IMG/VR virus record: IMGVR_UViG_2541047916_000004
Length of the DNA: 31,226 nucleotides
From: a virus
Lineage: Duplodnaviria; Heunggongvirae; Uroviricota; Caudoviricetes
Strand: one strand, 5' to 3'
Notes under the pieces: generated by a model
Told to the model about the DNA's origin: nothing
The model's input: only the letters and a program-made list of their open reading frames with translations
The model's database searches: none
Made by a program: the position numbers and the translations under genes
Part shown: one piece after another, positions 5,961 to 15,877 of the stretch
Numbering within the stretch: position 1 is the first letter of the stretch
Layout: each line of letters starts with the position of its first letter

Positions 5961-6002
5961 AATTTTTGCGGTGTCTTAACTGGTGACTAGTTGTTTGGTG
6001 AG

Positions 6003-6422
6003 CTATGATGCGTTTTGTGCTTTCTTTTTACGGATTTCTTCGTAGATCATATTGTAATACTGTTTTTTCTCTTCAAGAGTTTTTAATAATTTATCCGCTT
6101 CACTTTCTGGCAGTTCGTCTAAGAGATCTAAAAAAATACGTTGTCGTGGCGTTAGAACCCTTGTTTCATAACTGGAGGCTGTGTTCGTTGATGATGAAAC
6201 GATACCATCCATCCATCCCCGGGGTAACCCAAAGGACTCTTCGATAATCTCCACCATATCATCAGCGATCCGTTTTTTTCCCTTTTTCCCCTCTGGGTAC
6301 AACATTCTTGATACATAAGAAGGCTCGCGCCCGATCTTTCTGGCCACGTTAACCGCTTTACCATCGCATTTCTCATCACGAATTTTGATGAGTTGCTGTC
6401 GTCTAAATTCATATTTGTCCAT
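6003..6422 (-). CDS. Putative CI-like prophage repressor (HTH)
   Basis: 139-aa ORF divergent from a Cro-like gene; segment AVNVARKIGREPSYVSRML resembles an HTH; flanked on both sides by palindromic operator-like sites. Confidence 0.6.
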   Translation of the reverse strand: MDKYEFRRQQLIKIRDEKCDGKAVNVARKIGREPSYVSRMLYPEGKKGKKRIADDMVEIIEESFGLPRGWMDGIVSSSTNTASSYETRVLTPRQRIFLDLLDELPESEADKLLKTLEEKKQYYNMIYEEIRKKKAQNAS

Positions 6423-6442
6423 AGGTAAATAATAGATGCGAT

Positions 6443-6497
6443 TACCGCAAGGTAAACAACCTGTGGGTATTGACTTTTGTTTACCTGTGGGTATTCT
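6443..6497. promoter_or_regulatory. OR-like operator/promoter region
   Basis: TACCGCAAGGTA (6443-6454), partial AACCTGTGGGTA (6459-6470) and TACCTGTGGGTA (6482-6493); candidate rightward promoter TTGACT (6470-6475), 16-nt spacer, TATTCT (6492-6497), ahead of the Cro-like gene at 6523. Confidence 0.5.
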
Positions 6498-6522
6498 TTG
6501 CTGTGTTTACTAAGGAGTAGCT

Positions 6523-6804
6523 ATGGAAGAATTAAGAATATTTCTCAATTCTCTTTCGTCAGATGAACAGCGTATGTTTGCATGCGAGTGTGGTACCAGC
6601 ATCGGTTATCTAAGAAAGGCATTGAGTAAAGGTCAAGTGTTAGGGGCATCGTTATGTGTCCTTATTGAGCGAGCCAGTAATGGTGAAGTTACACGTCAGC
6701 AACTAAGGCCTTTTGATTGGATGAATATTTGGCCCGAGCTGGAAGATACCAAAACGTTAACACAACCACTTTCTAGGAGCTTGATTCATGAAAATCAAGC
6801 ATGA
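6523..6804 (+). CDS. Cro-like HTH regulator (YdaS-like)
   Basis: 93-aa ORF divergent from the repressor; MFACECGTSIGYLRKALSKGQ is HTH-like; first gene of the rightward operon; resembles the Rac-type ydaS architecture. Confidence 0.65.
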   Translation: MEELRIFLNSLSSDEQRMFACECGTSIGYLRKALSKGQVLGASLCVLIERASNGEVTRQQLRPFDWMNIWPELEDTKTLTQPLSRSLIHENQA

Positions 6805-7213
6805 ACACATCCGCATGGCGATGAATGCCTGGGCGCGTCCTGATGGCGAAAAAGTTCCAGCAGCTGGAATAACCCAGGCTTATTTTGAGTTGGGTATGAC
6901 GTTCCCGGAACTGTATGACGACAGCCATCCGGAAGCCCTGGCTCGCAATACCCAGAAAATTTTCCGCTGGGTAGAGAAAGACACCCCTGATGCTGTTGAA
7001 AAAATGCAGGCTCTGTTACCGGCGATCGAAAAGGCGATGCCGCCTTTGCTGGTGGCCCGTATGCGCAGCCACAGTTCTGAATATTACCGTGAGATCGTCG
7101 AACGGAGGGATCGGCTGGTGAAGGATGTCGATGATTTTGTTGCGTCAGCGGTTGTTTTGTATGACCAGATGAATCGCGGCGGCCCGGCAGGGAATGCTGT
7201 GGTGATGCACTAA
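6788..7213 (+). CDS. YdaT-like (CII-like) regulator
   Basis: 141-aa ORF overlapping the Cro-like gene by 17 nt; position and size match the ydaS-ydaT pair of Rac-type prophages. Confidence 0.6.
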   Translation: MKIKHEHIRMAMNAWARPDGEKVPAAGITQAYFELGMTFPELYDDSHPEALARNTQKIFRWVEKDTPDAVEKMQALLPAIEKAMPPLLVARMRSHSSEYYREIVERRDRLVKDVDDFVASAVVLYDQMNRGGPAGNAVVMH

Positions 7214-7235
7214 AAGCGCGGTGTTCGGGGGTTTT

Positions 7236-8198
7236 ATGAGCAGCAAGCTTCATGGTCTTGTCTGGGAAGGGTGCGCCTTCACCGGCATGATCTTATCCAG
7301 GGTGGCGGTTATGGCCCGTCTTGCAGACTACAGCAATGACGAGGGCGTGTCATGGCCTGCCATTGAAACTATCCGGCGTCAGATCGGTGCAAGAAGTGAA
7401 TCCACAGTGAAATCGGCTATTGCAGAACTGGCGAAAGAGGGCTGGCTGACGAAGGAAGAGCGTAAGGTCGGTGGGCGTAATGTAAGCAATATCTATCGGC
7501 TTAATGTGGAAAAACTCGAAGCAGCTGCGGCGGCGGCGCGTGAGTCATATAAACCGAAAAGAAAAATTAGCCCGGCAAAAAATGACCCGTTAACAGTTGA
7601 CCCGTCAAATATTGACCCCTCAACGGTTGACCCGTCAAATTTTGATGGATCAACTGTTGATAAAAAACTGCCGATTAGGGGGGCGATGATTGACCCCGAT
7701 CCGTCAGTATTAAAACCTGATCCGTCAGATAAAAGATCTTCTTGTCCGGACGCTTCGCAACCGGACCCGCAGACGGCTGAACAGGATTTTTTAACCCGAC
7801 ACCCTGACGCGGTTGTGTTCAGTGCGAAAAAACGCCAGTGGGGAAGTCAGGAAGATTTGGTGTGCGCACAGTGGATCTGGGGACGAATCGTGAGTCTTTA
7901 CGAGCAGGCGGCCAGCTATGATGGCGAGATCACTAGACCGAAAGAACCCAACTGGACAGCATGGGCCAATGACGTTCGCACAATGCGGATGCTGGATGGC
8001 AGAACTCACAGACAAATTTGTGAAATGTTTGGGCGTCTCCAGCGGGATTCGTTCTGGGTAAAAAACATCATGAGTCCGGCAAAACTCCGGGAAAAATGGG
8101 ATGAACTGGTTATCCGCCTGGGGCGTTCGCCTGCGCAGCGTTGCGTGAATCACATTTCTGAACCGGACACTGAAATACCGCCGGGATTCAGGGGGTGA
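7236..8198 (+). CDS. Replication initiator, lambda O-like (replisome organiser)
   Basis: About 320 aa (ATG 7236; alternative GTG 7221); N-terminal HTH-like segment; gene body contains DNA iterons encoding DPSNIDPSTVDPSNFDGSTVD; followed directly by a DnaC-like loader gene. Confidence 0.7.
   Translation: MSSKLHGLVWEGCAFTGMILSRVAVMARLADYSNDEGVSWPAIETIRRQIGARSESTVKSAIAELAKEGWLTKEERKVGGRNVSNIYRLNVEKLEAAAAAARESYKPKRKISPAKNDPLTVDPSNIDPSTVDPSNFDGSTVDKKLPIRGAMIDPDPSVLKPDPSDKRSSCPDASQPDPQTAEQDFLTRHPDAVVFSAKKRQWGSQEDLVCAQWIWGRIVSLYEQAASYDGEITRPKEPNWTAWANDVRTMRMLDGRTHRQICEMFGRLQRDSFWVKNIMSPAKLREKWDELVIRLGRSPAQRCVNHISEPDTEIPPGFRG
7583..7730. repeat. Iteron array (putative phage replication origin) inside the O-like gene
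   Basis: Direct repeats TGACCCGT / TTGACCCGTCAAAT (7597-7610 and 7627-7640) / TTGACCCCTCAAC / TTGATGGATCAACT, then an A-rich tract and two GATCCGTCAG repeats (7698-7707, 7720-7729). Confidence 0.5.
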
Positions 8199-8204
8199 CG
8201 TGTC

Positions 8205-8951
8205 ATGAAAAACATTGCGGCAGTTGGGGTTCTTGAACGTATTCGCAGACTTGCACCACAGGGGTCGGTTCCACCGTACCGGACGGTGGAGGAGTGGCGG
8301 GAATGGCAACTTGCTGAAGGACGAAAACGCAGCGAGGAGATTAACCGCCAGAATCGCCAGTTGCGGGTGGAAAAAATCCTGAATCGTTCGGGCATCCAGC
8401 CTCTGCACAGCAAATGCTCGTTTGCAAATTATCAGGTGCAGAACGACGGGCAAAAATACGCGCTGAGCCAGGCCAAATCCATAGCTGACGAACTGATGAC
8501 CGGGTGCACGAATTTTGTGTTCAGCGGTAAAACCGGCACCGGGAAAAATCACCTTGCAGCGGCGATGGGCAACCGGCTGATGGTGAAGGGGCGCAGCGTG
8601 ATTATCGTCACCGTGTCTGACGTCATGAGCGTGTTGCATGACAGCTACGACAACGGCAAATCCGGGGAAAAATTTTTACAGGAGCTTTGCGGGGTTGATT
8701 TGCTGGTCCTGGATGAAATAGGCGTTCAGCGGGAGACGAAAAACGAGCAGGTGGTATTGCACCAGATAATTGATCGCCGGACAGCATCACTGTGCAGTGT
8801 CGGGATGTTAACAAACCTGAATCATGCCGCAATGAGTACGCTTCTTGGTGAGAGGATTATGGACCGCATGACCATGAACGGTGGTCGATGGGTGACGTTT
8901 AACTGGGATAGCTGGCGTCCAAATGTCAGCAATATGAGGGTTGTGAAGTAA
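8205..8951 (+). CDS. DnaC-like helicase loader (AAA+ ATPase)
   Basis: 248-aa ORF with Walker A GKTGTGKNHLAAA and Walker B-like LLVLDEIG; immediately downstream of the O-like gene. Confidence 0.85.
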   Translation: MKNIAAVGVLERIRRLAPQGSVPPYRTVEEWREWQLAEGRKRSEEINRQNRQLRVEKILNRSGIQPLHSKCSFANYQVQNDGQKYALSQAKSIADELMTGCTNFVFSGKTGTGKNHLAAAMGNRLMVKGRSVIIVTVSDVMSVLHDSYDNGKSGEKFLQELCGVDLLVLDEIGVQRETKNEQVVLHQIIDRRTASLCSVGMLTNLNHAAMSTLLGERIMDRMTMNGGRWVTFNWDSWRPNVSNMRVVK

Positions 8952-8972
8952 TTTTGTCCGGAGGAAATTTTA

Positions 8973-9743
8973 ATGGAAACCGTATCTGACGCACTGAAAG
9001 CACTGAAAAAAGCCTCTTCACATGTGGTGGCAGCTCGCCTTGGAATCAGTCGTGAAGAGGCTGTCAACGAGCTGTGGGAACTCAAAAGAAAAGGCGTCGT
9101 TGATAAAACTGGTCACACCTGGTTTCTGGCTGGCGAAGGTGAATCCCGGGTAACCGAAGAGCGGCCAGTAAAATCTGAAGCACAGGATATGCTGACCGGG
9201 GAGGTCGAACAAAAAGTTACCGCAGACATGATGATTGAGTTTATCGGTCAGGATGGGGCTAAAACGTGTGAGGAACTGGCGGGTAAGTTCGGTGTCAGTA
9301 CTCGCAAGGTTGCTTCCACGCTGGCGGTGGTAACCGCAACGGGGCGGCTGGCACGCGTTAATCAGAACGGTAAATTTCGTTACTGCATGCCGGGCGATAA
9401 TTTACCAGCAGAGCCGAAAGCCGCGCTGGTAACGGAAAGTGATGGTAAGGCCTTTCCTCAGCCAGCAGGTGCTGCGTTACCAGTCCGGGAAGCCGCAACA
9501 CAGGAAGAAATTAAAACAGAAACTGTGGCGGACATTGTGCAGCCGTTGCCATCGTTTACCGAAACGCAAGCAGATGAGCTGATTTTTCCGTCCCTTCGCA
9601 GGGCAAACCTGGCGCTGCGCAGGGCGAAAAGTGATGTTCAGAAGTGGGAGCGAGTCTGCGCCGCGCTGCGGGAGCTGAACAAGCACCGGGATATTGTTCG
9701 ACAGATTACTGATTCTTCCCGCCGTGTTGTATCGGAAAAGTGA
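8973..9743 (+). CDS. Hypothetical protein with two winged-helix-like repeats
   Basis: 256-aa ORF with GGAGG RBS; two internally similar segments (AARLGISREEAVNELWELKRKGVVD and CEELAGKFGVSTRKVASTLAVVTATGRLARV). Confidence 0.55.
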   Translation: METVSDALKALKKASSHVVAARLGISREEAVNELWELKRKGVVDKTGHTWFLAGEGESRVTEERPVKSEAQDMLTGEVEQKVTADMMIEFIGQDGAKTCEELAGKFGVSTRKVASTLAVVTATGRLARVNQNGKFRYCMPGDNLPAEPKAALVTESDGKAFPQPAGAALPVREAATQEEIKTETVADIVQPLPSFTETQADELIFPSLRRANLALRRAKSDVQKWERVCAALRELNKHRDIVRQITDSSRRVVSEK

Positions 9744-9758
9744 TTGCCGGAGGCGCTT

Positions 9759-10184
9759 ATGGCAAAAGTATTTACACAAGAAGAGCGGGAAAAAATTAAA
9801 GGGCAGGTTGTTGAACTTGTACGTCTGAGCGGTCGCGAGACGTTGCGGCAACTGGAAGCCAGGACAGGTGCGACAAGATATCTGATGAGTGTTCTCGCCA
9901 GAGAGCTGGTTGCCAGTGGCGATGTATACAACTCTGGTTACGGGTTATTCCCGTCTGAACAGGCGCGTAAGGACTGGCAAAATGCTCGCAAAAAACTCTC
10001 AAGGGCAAAGGTGAAGAAACCTGCAGTGGTTGATCCGGACCTTATCTGGTCGTTACCAGACGGCGAAATACGCCGCTACGACAGGCGCCTGAATATAATC
10101 TGTCGCGAGTGCCGGAAGAGCGAAGCTATGCAGCGTGTACTGGCATTTTATCAAGGAAATGTTAGGTATTTTAGACGTTACTAG
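9759..10184 (+). CDS. Hypothetical protein (winged-helix-like N-terminus)
   Basis: ATG at 9759 preceded by GGAGG; about 141 aa; N-terminal segment resembles the repeats in the upstream protein. Confidence 0.5.
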   Translation: MAKVFTQEEREKIKGQVVELVRLSGRETLRQLEARTGATRYLMSVLARELVASGDVYNSGYGLFPSEQARKDWQNARKKLSRAKVKKPAVVDPDLIWSLPDGEIRRYDRRLNIICRECRKSEAMQRVLAFYQGNVRYFRRY

Positions 10185-10337
10185 ATTAAAGAGCATTAGT
10201 TCAGATGTGAATTGACATTTTCATGGCGCAGGGTAGAGCCAGCGTGGTTGTCCGCTTTGCGTCAAAACCAGATATTACCAGATTTAGACATATATTCCCG
10301 ATAGACCTGCTCTGATGCTACACTCTGTGCTATTTTC

Positions 10338-11024
10338 ATGACCCCAATAAAAATATTTATGACTATTGCTGATTTCAAACGGCCTAAATTGGAGCTCCCA
10401 AACGGGGCAAACAAACTACTACTGCACTCTTGCTGTGCTCCATGTTCCGGTGAAGTGATGGAGGCGCTTCAGGCCTCGGGAATCGACTACACCATCTTTT
10501 TCTACAACCCGAACATTCATCCTCAGAAAGAGTATTTAATTCGTAAGGATGAAAATATTCGCTTTGCTGAACAACACGGCGTGCCGTTTATCGATGCTGA
10601 TTACGACACCGACAACTGGTTTGAACGTGCCAAAGGAATGGAATGGGAGCCTGAGAGGGGGATCCGTTGTACCATGTGTTTTGACATGCGTTTTGAGCGG
10701 ACAGCGTTGTACGCTGCTGAAAATGGTTTCAGTGTGATCAGCAGTTCACTGGGCATTTCACGCTGGAAAAATATGCAGCAGGTTAACGAGTGTGGGCGGC
10801 GAGCTGTTGCGCATTATCCGGGTATGGTGTACTGGGATTATAACTGGCGCAAGCAGGGCGGCTCGTCCCGTATGATTGAAATCAGCAAGCGCGAAAAATT
10901 CTATCAGCAGGAATATTGTGGCTGTGTGTATTCTCTGCGCGATACCAATCTACACCGCAAATCTCAGGGACGCCCTCTTATCAAAATTGGCCAACTCCAC
11001 TACGGAAAAGAAGAGAAGGAGTGA
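10338..11024 (+). CDS. queH: QueH-like (DUF208) putative epoxyqueuosine reductase
   Basis: 228-aa ORF with N-terminal [11 protein letters not shown] and C-terminal YCGCVYS cysteine motifs characteristic of QueH/DUF208 Fe-S proteins; assigned from motif recollection, not a search. Confidence 0.7.
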
Positions 11025-11261
11025 TTTTATGGATCACCTTTCTGATTGATTTCATATTGGCGAGGTGACGTGAGTTAAGTAGAATGGCTGCGGGTGCTTG
11101 AGGCTATCTGTCTCAGGCATGAACACTGAAAGGCAGATAGAGAAAAGCCCCAGTTAACATTTCGCGTCCTGCAAGACGCTTAACATTAATCTGAGGCCCA
11201 ATCTATGTCTCACAAATGTAGGTTAGCCTCTTACGTGCCGAAAGGCAAGGGGAAGCAGGCT

Positions 11262-11417
11262 ATGAAGCAGCAAAAGGCGATGTTAATCGCCCTGATCGTC
11301 ATCTGTTTAACCGTCATAGTGACGGCACTGGTAACGAGGAAAGACCTCTGCGAGGTACGACTCCGAACCGGCCAGACGGAGGTCGCTGTCTTCACAGCTT
11401 ACGAACCTGAGGAGTAA
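11262..11417 (+). CDS. hok: Hok/Gef family type I toxin
   Basis: 51-aa peptide MKQQKAMLIALIVICLTVIVTALVTRKDLCEVRLRTGQTEVAVFTAYEPEE, near-identical to Hok/RelF-family toxins; the longer in-frame ORF from 11205 is probably an artefactual extension. Confidence 0.85.
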   Translation: MKQQKAMLIALIVICLTVIVTALVTRKDLCEVRLRTGQTEVAVFTAYEPEE

Positions 11418-11485
11418 GAGACCTGGCGGGGGAGAAATCCCTCGCCACCTCTGATGTGTCAGGCATCCTCAACGCACCCGCACTT

Positions 11486-11513
11486 AACCCGCTTCGGCGG
11501 GTTTTGTTTTTTT
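11486..11513 (+). terminator. Rho-independent terminator downstream of hok
   Basis: ACCCGC-TTCG-GCGGGT stem-loop followed by a T-run (TTTTGTTTTTTT). Confidence 0.55.
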
Positions 11514-15627: not shown

Positions 15628-15703
15628 GGCCCTTTAGCTCAGTGGTGAGAGCGAGCGACTCATAATCGCCAGGTCGCTGGTTCAAATCCAGCAAGGGCCA
15701 CCA
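15628..15703 (+). tRNA. tRNA-Ile2-like (anticodon CAU; ileX/ileZ-type)
   Basis: 76 nt cloverleaf: acceptor GGCCCTT/AAGGGCC, D-arm AGCTCAGTGGTGAGAGC, anticodon loop CTCATAA, T-loop TTCAAAT, ACCA tail; closely resembles E. coli ileX. Confidence 0.85.
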
Positions 15704-15710
15704 TCACATA

Positions 15711-15787
15711 CCGCCATTAGCTCATCAGGAAAGAGCGCCAGCTTTCGAAGCTGGTTGCGCGGAGTTCGGGTCCCCGAAGGCGGTCCA
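15711..15787 (+). tRNA. tRNA-Arg(UCG)-like, possibly degenerate
   Basis: D-arm GCTC...GAGC and anticodon stem-loop CCAGC-TTTCGAA-GCTGG are clean; acceptor stem has one mismatch and the T-arm is non-canonical (loop TTCGGGT, mismatched stem). Confidence 0.45.
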
Positions 15788-15800
15788 TTATCTGTATCCT

Positions 15801-15877
15801 GCGTTGTTAGCTCAGCCGGACAGAGCAATTGCCTTCTAAGCAATCGGTCACTGGTTCGAATCCAGTACAACGCGCCA
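15801..15877 (+). tRNA. tRNA-Arg (anticodon UCU)
   Basis: 77 nt: acceptor GCGTTGT/ACAACGC, D-arm GCTC...GAGC, anticodon stem-loop ATTGC-CTTCTAA-GCAAT, T-arm ACTGG-TTCGAAT-CCAGT, GCCA tail. Confidence 0.85.

Follow-up and report, generated by a model that had tools for sequence, protein, structure and literature searches.

What are the two consecutive genes that occupy positions 8,973 to 10,184 of IMG/VR virus record IMGVR_UViG_2541047916_000004, and what might their products do? The record is a 31,226-nucleotide stretch of Caudoviricetes DNA, here called the window. An initial annotation, made from the letters alone, had described two proteins built from repeated segments resembling winged helices (WH), possibly duplicates of a small DNA-binding module of unknown role. 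The first gene (8973-9743, + strand, TGA stop at 9741-9743) encodes a 256-residue YdaW-family, DUF1627 domain-containing protein (RefSeq WP_000450998.1), hereafter P1. The second (9759-10184, + strand), hereafter P2, encodes a 141-residue DUF977 family protein, also labelled LygF or Ren-like (RefSeq WP_001151165.1; RefSeq annotation, PF06163, PHROG 142). The lengths and coordinates given by the initial annotation were exact: its 256-residue open reading frame (ORF) occupies 8973-9743, and its 141-residue protein is P2 read from the RefSeq start to 10184. A mechanical ORF call for P2 begins at a TTG at 9744 and gives 146 residues; RefSeq instead starts at the ATG at 9759, and direct reading of the sequence places a Shine-Dalgarno GGAGG 5 nucleotides 5' of that ATG (9749-9753, + strand).

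We are close to certain that these are two separate, conserved and already catalogued accessory genes of Rac-like lambdoid prophages, with the domain architecture set out below. The 1212-bp stretch is 100% identical in DNA to many complete E. coli chromosomes, among them O7:K1 CE10, where the counterpart is a lambdoid prophage with an integration site adjoining ompW and the P1 and P2 genes are annotated as DUF1627 and DUF977. P1 matched the Pfam model PF07789 (DUF1627) at 328 bits against a cutoff of 28.1, with profile positions 1-155 of 155 aligned to P1 residues 91-245, and matched PHROG 630 end to end (E = 9e-133). P2 matched PF06163 (DUF977) at 97.4 bits against a cutoff of 22.1, over profile positions 1-133 of 134. 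P1 residues 1-154 were 55% identical to E. coli K-12 YdaW (b1361; BLASTP, E = 4e-55); the C-terminal part of YdaW is unrelated to P1 because the cryptic Rac prophage is degraded there. By these comparisons, P1 is the intact, full-length form of the truncated K-12 YdaW. The earlier observation was thus correct and concerns very common E. coli prophage genes, although 'of unknown role' understates a catalogue that already holds DUF1627 (YdaW) and DUF977 (LygF) in Pfam and PHROG 142 as 'Ren-like exclusion protein'.

Domain architecture of P1 and P2

A HMMER search of 1.84 billion cluster representatives, using a natural P1-P2 fusion protein as query, returned 246 representatives at E <= 1e-3, which makes the family a small one. 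The P1 family alignment held 27 full-length P1-like proteins, down to 24% identity, and a separate set of P2-like proteins was aligned. AlphaFold2 yielded the H-(b)-H-H-b-b topology of a winged helix three times, twice in P1 and once in P2, with block predicted local distance difference test (pLDDT) values above 90, and Foldseek searches of the PDB with both proteins returned winged-helix proteins only. The models and family profiles together bear out the reading of two helix-turn-helix (HTH)-like segments in P1 and a third in P2.

The first P1 domain, WH1 (residues 1-55; 8973-9137, + strand; block pLDDT 95-97), comprises helices at 4-11, 16-23 and 27-40 and strands at 43-46 and 49-52. It is neutral to acidic and is the most conserved part of the P1 family; its wing tryptophan, W50, is invariant in 27 of 27 aligned members, and it gave a sub-threshold match to HTH_Crp_2 (E = 4e-5). 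WH1 lies outside Pfam DUF1627, since that model spans only P1 residues 91-245. A variable linker, predicted to be disordered (residues 56-82; 9138-9218, + strand; pLDDT below 50 for 58-73), leads to WH2 (residues 83-140; 9219-9392, + strand; block pLDDT 94-97), a basic domain that resembles the lambda Ren winged helix, with helices at 84-94, 99-106 and 110-123 and strands at 127-131 and 134-138. A second predicted disordered linker, acidic in character (residues 141-205; 9393-9587, + strand; pLDDT below 50 for 154-185), precedes a basic helical module at the C-terminus (residues 206-256; 9588-9740, + strand; AlphaFold2 helices 208-237 and 239-255; block pLDDT 81-94). This module carries a motif around R216 that is conserved in the family alignment and is possibly an oligomerisation or partner-binding region. 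From the N-terminus to the C-terminus, mean pairwise identity in the P1 family was 48% (WH1), 14% (linker 1), 35% (WH2), 19% (linker 2) and 29% (C-terminal module); family mean charge was -2.2 for WH1, +4.0 for WH2, -6.6 for linker 2 and +6.0 for the C-terminal helices.

In P2, the winged helix spans about residues 7-65 (9777-9953, + strand; block pLDDT 91-94; Foldseek matches), with helices at 7-24, 29-36 and 40-53 and strands at 57-59 and 62-64. The peptide RETLRQLEARTGATRYLMSVLARELVASG, singled out in the initial annotation, is P2 residues 26-54, helices 2 and 3 of the modelled winged helix. Beyond the domain, AlphaFold2 placed a helix at 67-86 and then a lower-confidence C-terminus, which includes a Ren motif of nearly invariant family-alignment columns (residues 107-133, YDRRLNIICRECRKSEAMQRVLAFYQG; 10077-10157, + strand). 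The description 'built from repeated segments' therefore suits the winged-helix modules, and does not extend to the acidic linker and basic C-terminal helices of P1 or to the Ren motif of P2, none of which is a repeat.

P2 and lambda Ren

The same PHROG 142 profile was matched by P2 (E = 5.3e-46; positions 1-113 of 116) and by the Ren protein of phage lambda (sequence from J02459; E = 1.6e-41; positions 11-110 of 116). In BLASTP, Ren NLVFKECRQSAAMKRVLAVY aligned with P2 NIICRECRKSEAMQRVLAFY at 60% identity over 20 residues (Ren residues 73-92; E = 5e-7). An hhalign comparison of the P2 family with Ren extended end to end, through the winged helix and the C-terminal motif (probability 93.5%, P = 2.3e-7, 86 columns). 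On this evidence, P2 is an elongated homologue of lambda Ren. Two other searches were less informative: lambda Ren gave no match to Pfam DUF977 at E <= 1, and a Foldseek search of viral predicted structures (BFVD), aimed at lambda Ren, gave generic winged-helix matches only (E >= 0.006). A literature search on Ren-like proteins found almost exclusively unrelated papers on 'REn' or 'REN'.

Relationships among the three winged helices

Are the three domains products of a duplication at this locus? Single-sequence Smith-Waterman comparison of P1 79-145 with P2 1-75 gave z = 4.5, with 0 of 2000 shuffles scoring as high, and P1 1-65 showed no significance against either other domain with 2000 shuffles. 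When family sub-alignments were compared as profiles, WH1 and WH2 matched in register over 47 columns (P = 4.9e-7, probability 92%), WH2 and the P2 winged helix matched at a similar level (P = 6.8e-7, probability 92%), and WH1 and the P2 winged helix matched at P = 2.8e-3; control comparisons against C-terminal segments gave P = 0.04-0.28. In a self-alignment of the whole P1 profile, for which segment boundaries were not preset, WH1-WH2 was the sole off-diagonal match (P = 5.2e-6, 63 columns including the wing; next P = 0.34), and the best match between the P1 and P2 family profiles was WH2 to the P2 winged helix (P = 7.2e-5). Thus the segments are indeed similar, and the internal repeat in P1 that the initial annotation had anticipated is detectable, with the relationship of WH1 to the other two domains visible only in family profiles and structure models.

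The similarity is an old one. Identity in the profile alignments was only 10-11% for the WH1-WH2 pair and 16-18% for WH2 with the P2 winged helix, and similarity between the domains was no stronger than their similarity to generic families such as HTH_Crp_2, PafC, FeoC and the MarR-type PHROGs. P1 WH2 matched two PHROGs that lambda Ren matched too, 142 (E = 3e-6) and 1687 (E = 1.4e-7); WH1 matched PHROGs 2440 and 633, the latter also matched weakly by Ren. All three domains therefore fall within a loose grouping of phage winged-helix families, in which WH2 stands closest to the Ren winged helix. The low identities and the different outside PHROGs matched by WH1 and WH2 rule out a recent duplication, and the three winged helices are distantly and anciently related members of the phage winged-helix superfamily. 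A recent duplication, intragenic or tandem, which would leave the repeats as mutual closest relatives with clear identity, was accordingly set aside, and with it the word 'duplication' in any recent or specific sense.

Distribution and independence of the two genes

The P1 and P2 ORFs share a reading frame, with only the TGA and 15 nucleotides between them (9741-9761). This arrangement raises the question of whether they are one gene, read through the TGA to give a functional 403-residue fusion with three winged helices. A metagenome protein of 403 residues (P0002) is exactly that fusion, with the TGA changed to GGA; it is, however, a single sequence on a single contig, and P2 has its own GGAGG and ATG. 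In our phage collection, 24 records carried a P1 homologue and 24 a P2 homologue, and 12 of the 36 with either carried both, always in the order P1 then P2 and less than 50 nucleotides apart. Among these 12, the start offset was 0, 1 or 2, with the genes in frame in five and out of frame in seven. Each gene stood alone in 12 further records: P1 in 11 PPompW-type records and one Actinobacillus phage record, P2 in mEp460, HannyBb, Tritos and others. The varying frame relation, the separate ribosome-binding site of P2 and the solitary occurrence of each gene led us to reject programmed readthrough or a fused gene, which we regard as extremely improbable. Since they are found together or singly in phages, the two genes are separable modules and not a unit.

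The position of these modules is conserved. In mEp460 and in PPompW phages, the P2 or P1 homologue, respectively, comes directly after the replication genes, and in phages that lack P1 the P2 homologue lies directly 3' of a replication gene. In distant relatives (26-42% identity), found in prophages of the YdaS/YdaT type, either gene occurs alone just 3' of a lambda-P-like or DnaC-like loader gene, with DUF977 adjoining the loader directly and DUF1627 one small ORF away. Of 5426 complete E. coli genomes, 2767 (51%) contained P1-like DNA, in as many as 9 places in one genome, and 4040 (74%) contained P2-like DNA.

A few chimeric ORFs were also seen, joining DUF1376 to DUF1627, YdaT to DUF1627, YdaT to DUF977 and a Zn-ribbon to DUF977 (P0245, P0251, P0269 and P0246; DUF1376 is YdaU-like). 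They are probably fusions created by deletions in decaying prophages, and we do not regard them as informative architectures.

Candidate functions

The explanation that we favour, which as a whole has slightly less than an even chance of being right, is that P1 and P2 are early accessory proteins. They would be non-essential, occupy the slot that ren holds in lambda and be produced early, alongside the replication proteins. Their winged-helix modules would serve as adaptors that bind a protein or nucleic-acid partner, not as classical operator-binding repressors, and such binding would protect phage replication or lytic growth from exclusion systems of the abortive-infection type. The mechanistic part, early accessory or counter-exclusion adaptors with a protein or nucleic-acid partner, is put forward tentatively and with rather less confidence than the whole. 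It draws on published leads, on the placement of the two genes behind those for replication, on their modular presence and absence and on the acidic character of WH1.

Two of the leads concern relatives of P2 and P1, respectively. Toothman and Herskowitz reportedly found in 1980 that lambda ren mutants are sensitive to Rex exclusion; by likeness to lambda Ren, P2 might likewise protect against Rex exclusion. A two-hybrid assay detected an interaction of Rex proteins with Ren (bioRxiv 10.1101/2021.04.19.439022). For the YdaW family, an overexpression screen listed ydaW among the prophage genes that block RcaT, the toxin of retron-Sen2 (bioRxiv 10.1101/2020.06.22.160242). The same preprint reported exonuclease VIII and Dam-type methylase classes as retron-Sen2 triggers. 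On one Logan contig (SRR19225728; L006, 3026-7573), a distant DUF1627 homologue, 26% identical in the family alignment, lies between exonuclease VIII and Dam-type methyltransferase genes; its place beside these retron-trigger gene classes may be a coincidence.

The charge of the domains bears on what they would bind. WH1, at a family mean of -2.2, is atypical for a DNA-reading head, and among the P1 winged helices only WH2 is basic; because WH1 is neutral to acidic, binding of a protein by this domain fits better than DNA reading. DNA binding by any of the P1 and P2 winged helices is putative. The basic WH2 nevertheless brings in a conventional alternative, in which P1 and P2 are sequence-specific DNA-binding transcription regulators that tune early or late prophage genes or host genes, each winged helix reading an operator and P1 dimerising through its C-terminal helices. 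The winged helix is the commonest DNA-binding domain of bacterial transcription factors, and the structural and profile neighbours of these domains include regulators of the MarR, ArsR, GntR, MntR and Crp types. At the start of WH2 helix 3 a basic motif (R-K-x-A-S) is conserved, and the wing is basic, in keeping with the family mean of +4.0. YdaW has been listed as a predicted E. coli transcription factor, with a MarR-type box and no assigned function (PMC9308461), and DUF977, found in fusion with Fic proteins, has been described as an HTH winged helix for which a regulatory role was proposed (PMC2686095).

However, every regulator-family match fell below its curated cutoff: HTH_Crp_2 scored 21-24 against 27, MarR_2 13 against 27, FeoC 18 against 21, PafC 20 against 32, an NCBIfam ArsR/SmtB subfamily 16 against 55 and MntR 20 against 153. 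The most conserved domain, WH1, is the neutral to acidic one, and no regulatory role is known for lambda Ren, the closest characterised relative. A search within and beside the P1 and P2 genes for palindromes or for operator- or iteron-like DNA repeats found none that was convincing, the sole strong array in the region being the 15-nucleotide TTGACCC iterons in the O-like gene described below. We consider the regulator alternative possible but unlikely.

The position of the genes admits another alternative. An O-like initiator gene (7221-8198; HTH_36, PHROG 391) and a DnaC-like loader gene (8205-8951; IstB, PHROG 50), both recognised by family profile matches, directly precede P1, as expected from the earlier placement of P1 and P2 downstream of replication genes. 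P1 and P2 might then be replication-accessory proteins whose binding to the origin, to the O-like initiator or DnaC-like loader, or to host DnaB would modulate initiation or a switch of replication mode. Whether a replication module is DnaC-like, lambda-P-like or primosomal, either gene is consistently located at its 3' end or close by, and ScpB and Rpa2, both among the fold matches, are examples of replication and chromosome proteins with tandem winged helices. Yet the modules are dispensable, since in many lambdoid phages that share these replication genes only one of the two is present, or neither, and one distant DUF1627 gene lies beside exonuclease VIII, with the replication gene, of the P2-type GPA kind, a long way downstream. 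A replication role is, in our assessment, improbable.

Several observations also count against the counter-exclusion adaptor reading. The experimental leads come from truncated YdaW and from lambda Ren, not from DUF1627 or DUF977 proteins of full length. For ydaW the evidence is a single match in the overexpression screen of a preprint, obtained with a truncated protein of two winged helices, and the place of ydaW among the 11 re-validated RcaT blockers could not be established (10.1101/2020.06.22.160242). The ren gene has been called 'likely involved in DNA replication' (bioRxiv 10.1101/2021.04.19.439022), and the basic WH2 and C-terminal helices of P1 fit nucleic-acid binding and hence a transcription-factor or replication role. 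Joint action of P1 and P2 is unsupported, because only 12 of the 36 phage records with either gene have both. A PADLOC search gave P2 no matches and P1 nothing beyond weak ones to the winged-helix parts of the CARF and Csa3 models (E = 8e-4 and 1.6e-3); these are generic winged-helix matches, and membership of a known defence system was rejected.

The adaptor reading has a bolder form. DUF1627/YdaW and DUF977/Ren-like proteins could be a widespread counter-defence class that has a Ren-like winged helix as its core, is encoded just behind the replication genes of lambdoid prophages and neutralises abortive-infection effectors such as RexAB-like systems or RcaT-type retron toxins directly. WH1 and the C-terminal modules would then give target specificity, and the basic WH2 would mimic or bind nucleic acid. 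This extension is speculative, and we think it more probably wrong than right by a wide measure.

Genomic surroundings

The left part of the prophage runs from integrase and excisionase through a frameshifted gene with a 3'-5' exoribonuclease domain to dicB and the repressor region. The middle part holds a YdaS-like regulator, a YdaT-like protein, the O-like initiator, the DnaC-like loader, P1 and P2, and these are followed by QueH, hokD, DUF968, RusA and Q. The + strand from 6000 to 11500, a range that spans the whole operon, showed no terminator-like site, so P1 and P2 are most simply assigned to the end of the early rightward operon; this is weak evidence.

Within the O-like gene, positions 7562-7660 contain about five or six 15-nucleotide repeats with TTGACCC(G/C)TC. 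A 33-nucleotide imperfect inverted repeat overlaps the array, which encodes a repetitive DPSNIDPSTVDPSNFDGSTVD peptide. The array looks like the replication origin of the prophage, with iterons inside the initiator gene as in lambda O.

The next gene after P2, across a gap of 153 nucleotides, encodes QueH, an epoxyqueuosine reductase (10338-11024, + strand; PF02677, E = 1e-65), which is an unusual tRNA- or DNA-modification-related cargo for the early region. An ORF for a type I toxin of the Hok/Gef family (11205-11417, + strand) lies between QueH and the DUF968 gene; the RefSeq hokD is a shorter coding sequence nested in it (11262-11417). HOK_GEF genes recur near the DUF1627 or DUF977 genes of distant relatives (L008 and L010). 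Further along, 3' of a DNA methyltransferase gene, the prophage has three tRNA genes (15628-15877, + strand), which ARAGORN called as tRNA-Met(CAT), tRNA-Arg(TCG) and tRNA-Arg(TCT); RefSeq names the first tRNA-Ile, presumably reading the CAT anticodon as lysidine-modified.

Known and new features of the two families

The families, the DUF977 fold and the Ren-like label already exist, making this a minor discovery; what the analysis adds is annotation refinement and not a new kind of system. The additions are the N-terminal winged helix that the Pfam DUF1627 model omits, the architecture of YdaW proteins as a tandem winged helix followed by an acidic linker and basic helices, the explicit alignment of Ren with DUF977, and the independence of the P1 and P2 genes. 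Their practical value lies in annotation, as both genes are still DUF-labelled despite occurring in 51% and 74% of complete E. coli genomes. Better labels would be tandem winged-helix protein for DUF1627 and elongated lambda-Ren homologue for DUF977, both in the slot of ren. Two of the commonest uncharacterised prophage genes thereby gain a testable hypothesis, that they may counter exclusion or abortive-infection systems.

Comparison with known systems

Phage records name the P2 orthologue LygF, a protein known from the Salmonella Enteritidis Sdf region and E. coli phages, and P2 is a typical DUF977 member. Kinch et al. (2009) assigned DUF977 a winged-helix fold with HHpred and COMPASS and found it sometimes fused to Fic (PMC2686095); those Fic-fused domains have an architecture other than that of P2. 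K-12 YdaW in the Rac prophage shares with P1 its gene position after a ydaV-type DnaC-like gene, but it is cut off after about residue 151 and has neither the acidic linker nor the C-terminal helices. The tandem winged-helix architecture of P1 is also unrecorded in Pfam DUF1627, which omits WH1.

The Foldseek matches of P1 comprised tandem winged-helix proteins (ScpB, SelB, ESCRT-II, DDRGK1) and single domains (Zalpha, FeoC, MarR, ArsR), and those of P2 were the MarR, GntR, Rpa2-WH, AraR and MntR winged helices. Examples include FeoC at a root-mean-square deviation (rmsd) of 0.9 A over 58 residues, an ArsR-like regulator at 1.2 A over 55 and MarR at 1.6 A over 54; WH2 also had weak PDB profile matches to the ArsR, Zalpha and AspA winged helices. 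The tandem proteins (ScpB, the C-terminal domains of SelB, ESCRT-II subunits and DDRGK1/UFL1) were the top P1 matches (E = 3e-4 to 3e-3). The likeness is one of fold only, with 11-20% identity and an rmsd of 9-15 A over both domains, the latter because domain orientation in the P1 model is undefined. In these proteins the domains pack together, whereas those of P1 are joined through a disordered linker of about 27 residues, and we see no evidence of common descent. The winged helices of proteins of this type mostly bind proteins or RNA, not operators.

Zalpha domains (ADAR1, ZBP1, PKZ and poxvirus E3) share with the P1 domains a compact three-helix winged helix (rmsd 0.8-1.6 A over 51-60 residues), with weak profile matches (E = 0.004-0.6). 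Hand alignment to the ADAR1 Zalpha sequence showed that the Asn and Tyr of helix 3 that contact Z-DNA are absent, replaced in WH2 by Ser and Val/Met, and that WH1 keeps the wing tryptophan W50 alone. As the helix 3 Asn/Tyr pair is not conserved in this alignment, membership of P1 in the Zalpha family was rejected.

Lambda Ren offers the closest parallel. Like P2, it consists of an N-terminal winged helix and the motif N-x-x-x-x-E-C-R-x-S-x-x-M-x-R-V-L-A, though at 96 residues it is shorter than P2 at 141, which has about 45 extra residues, a helix and a low-confidence segment, between the two. The ren gene is transcribed from pR along with cro-cII-O-P (PMC3640518). It comes directly after P in the order O-P-ren, in a pR-type operon, just as P2 follows the replication genes in the order O-like, DnaC-like, P1.

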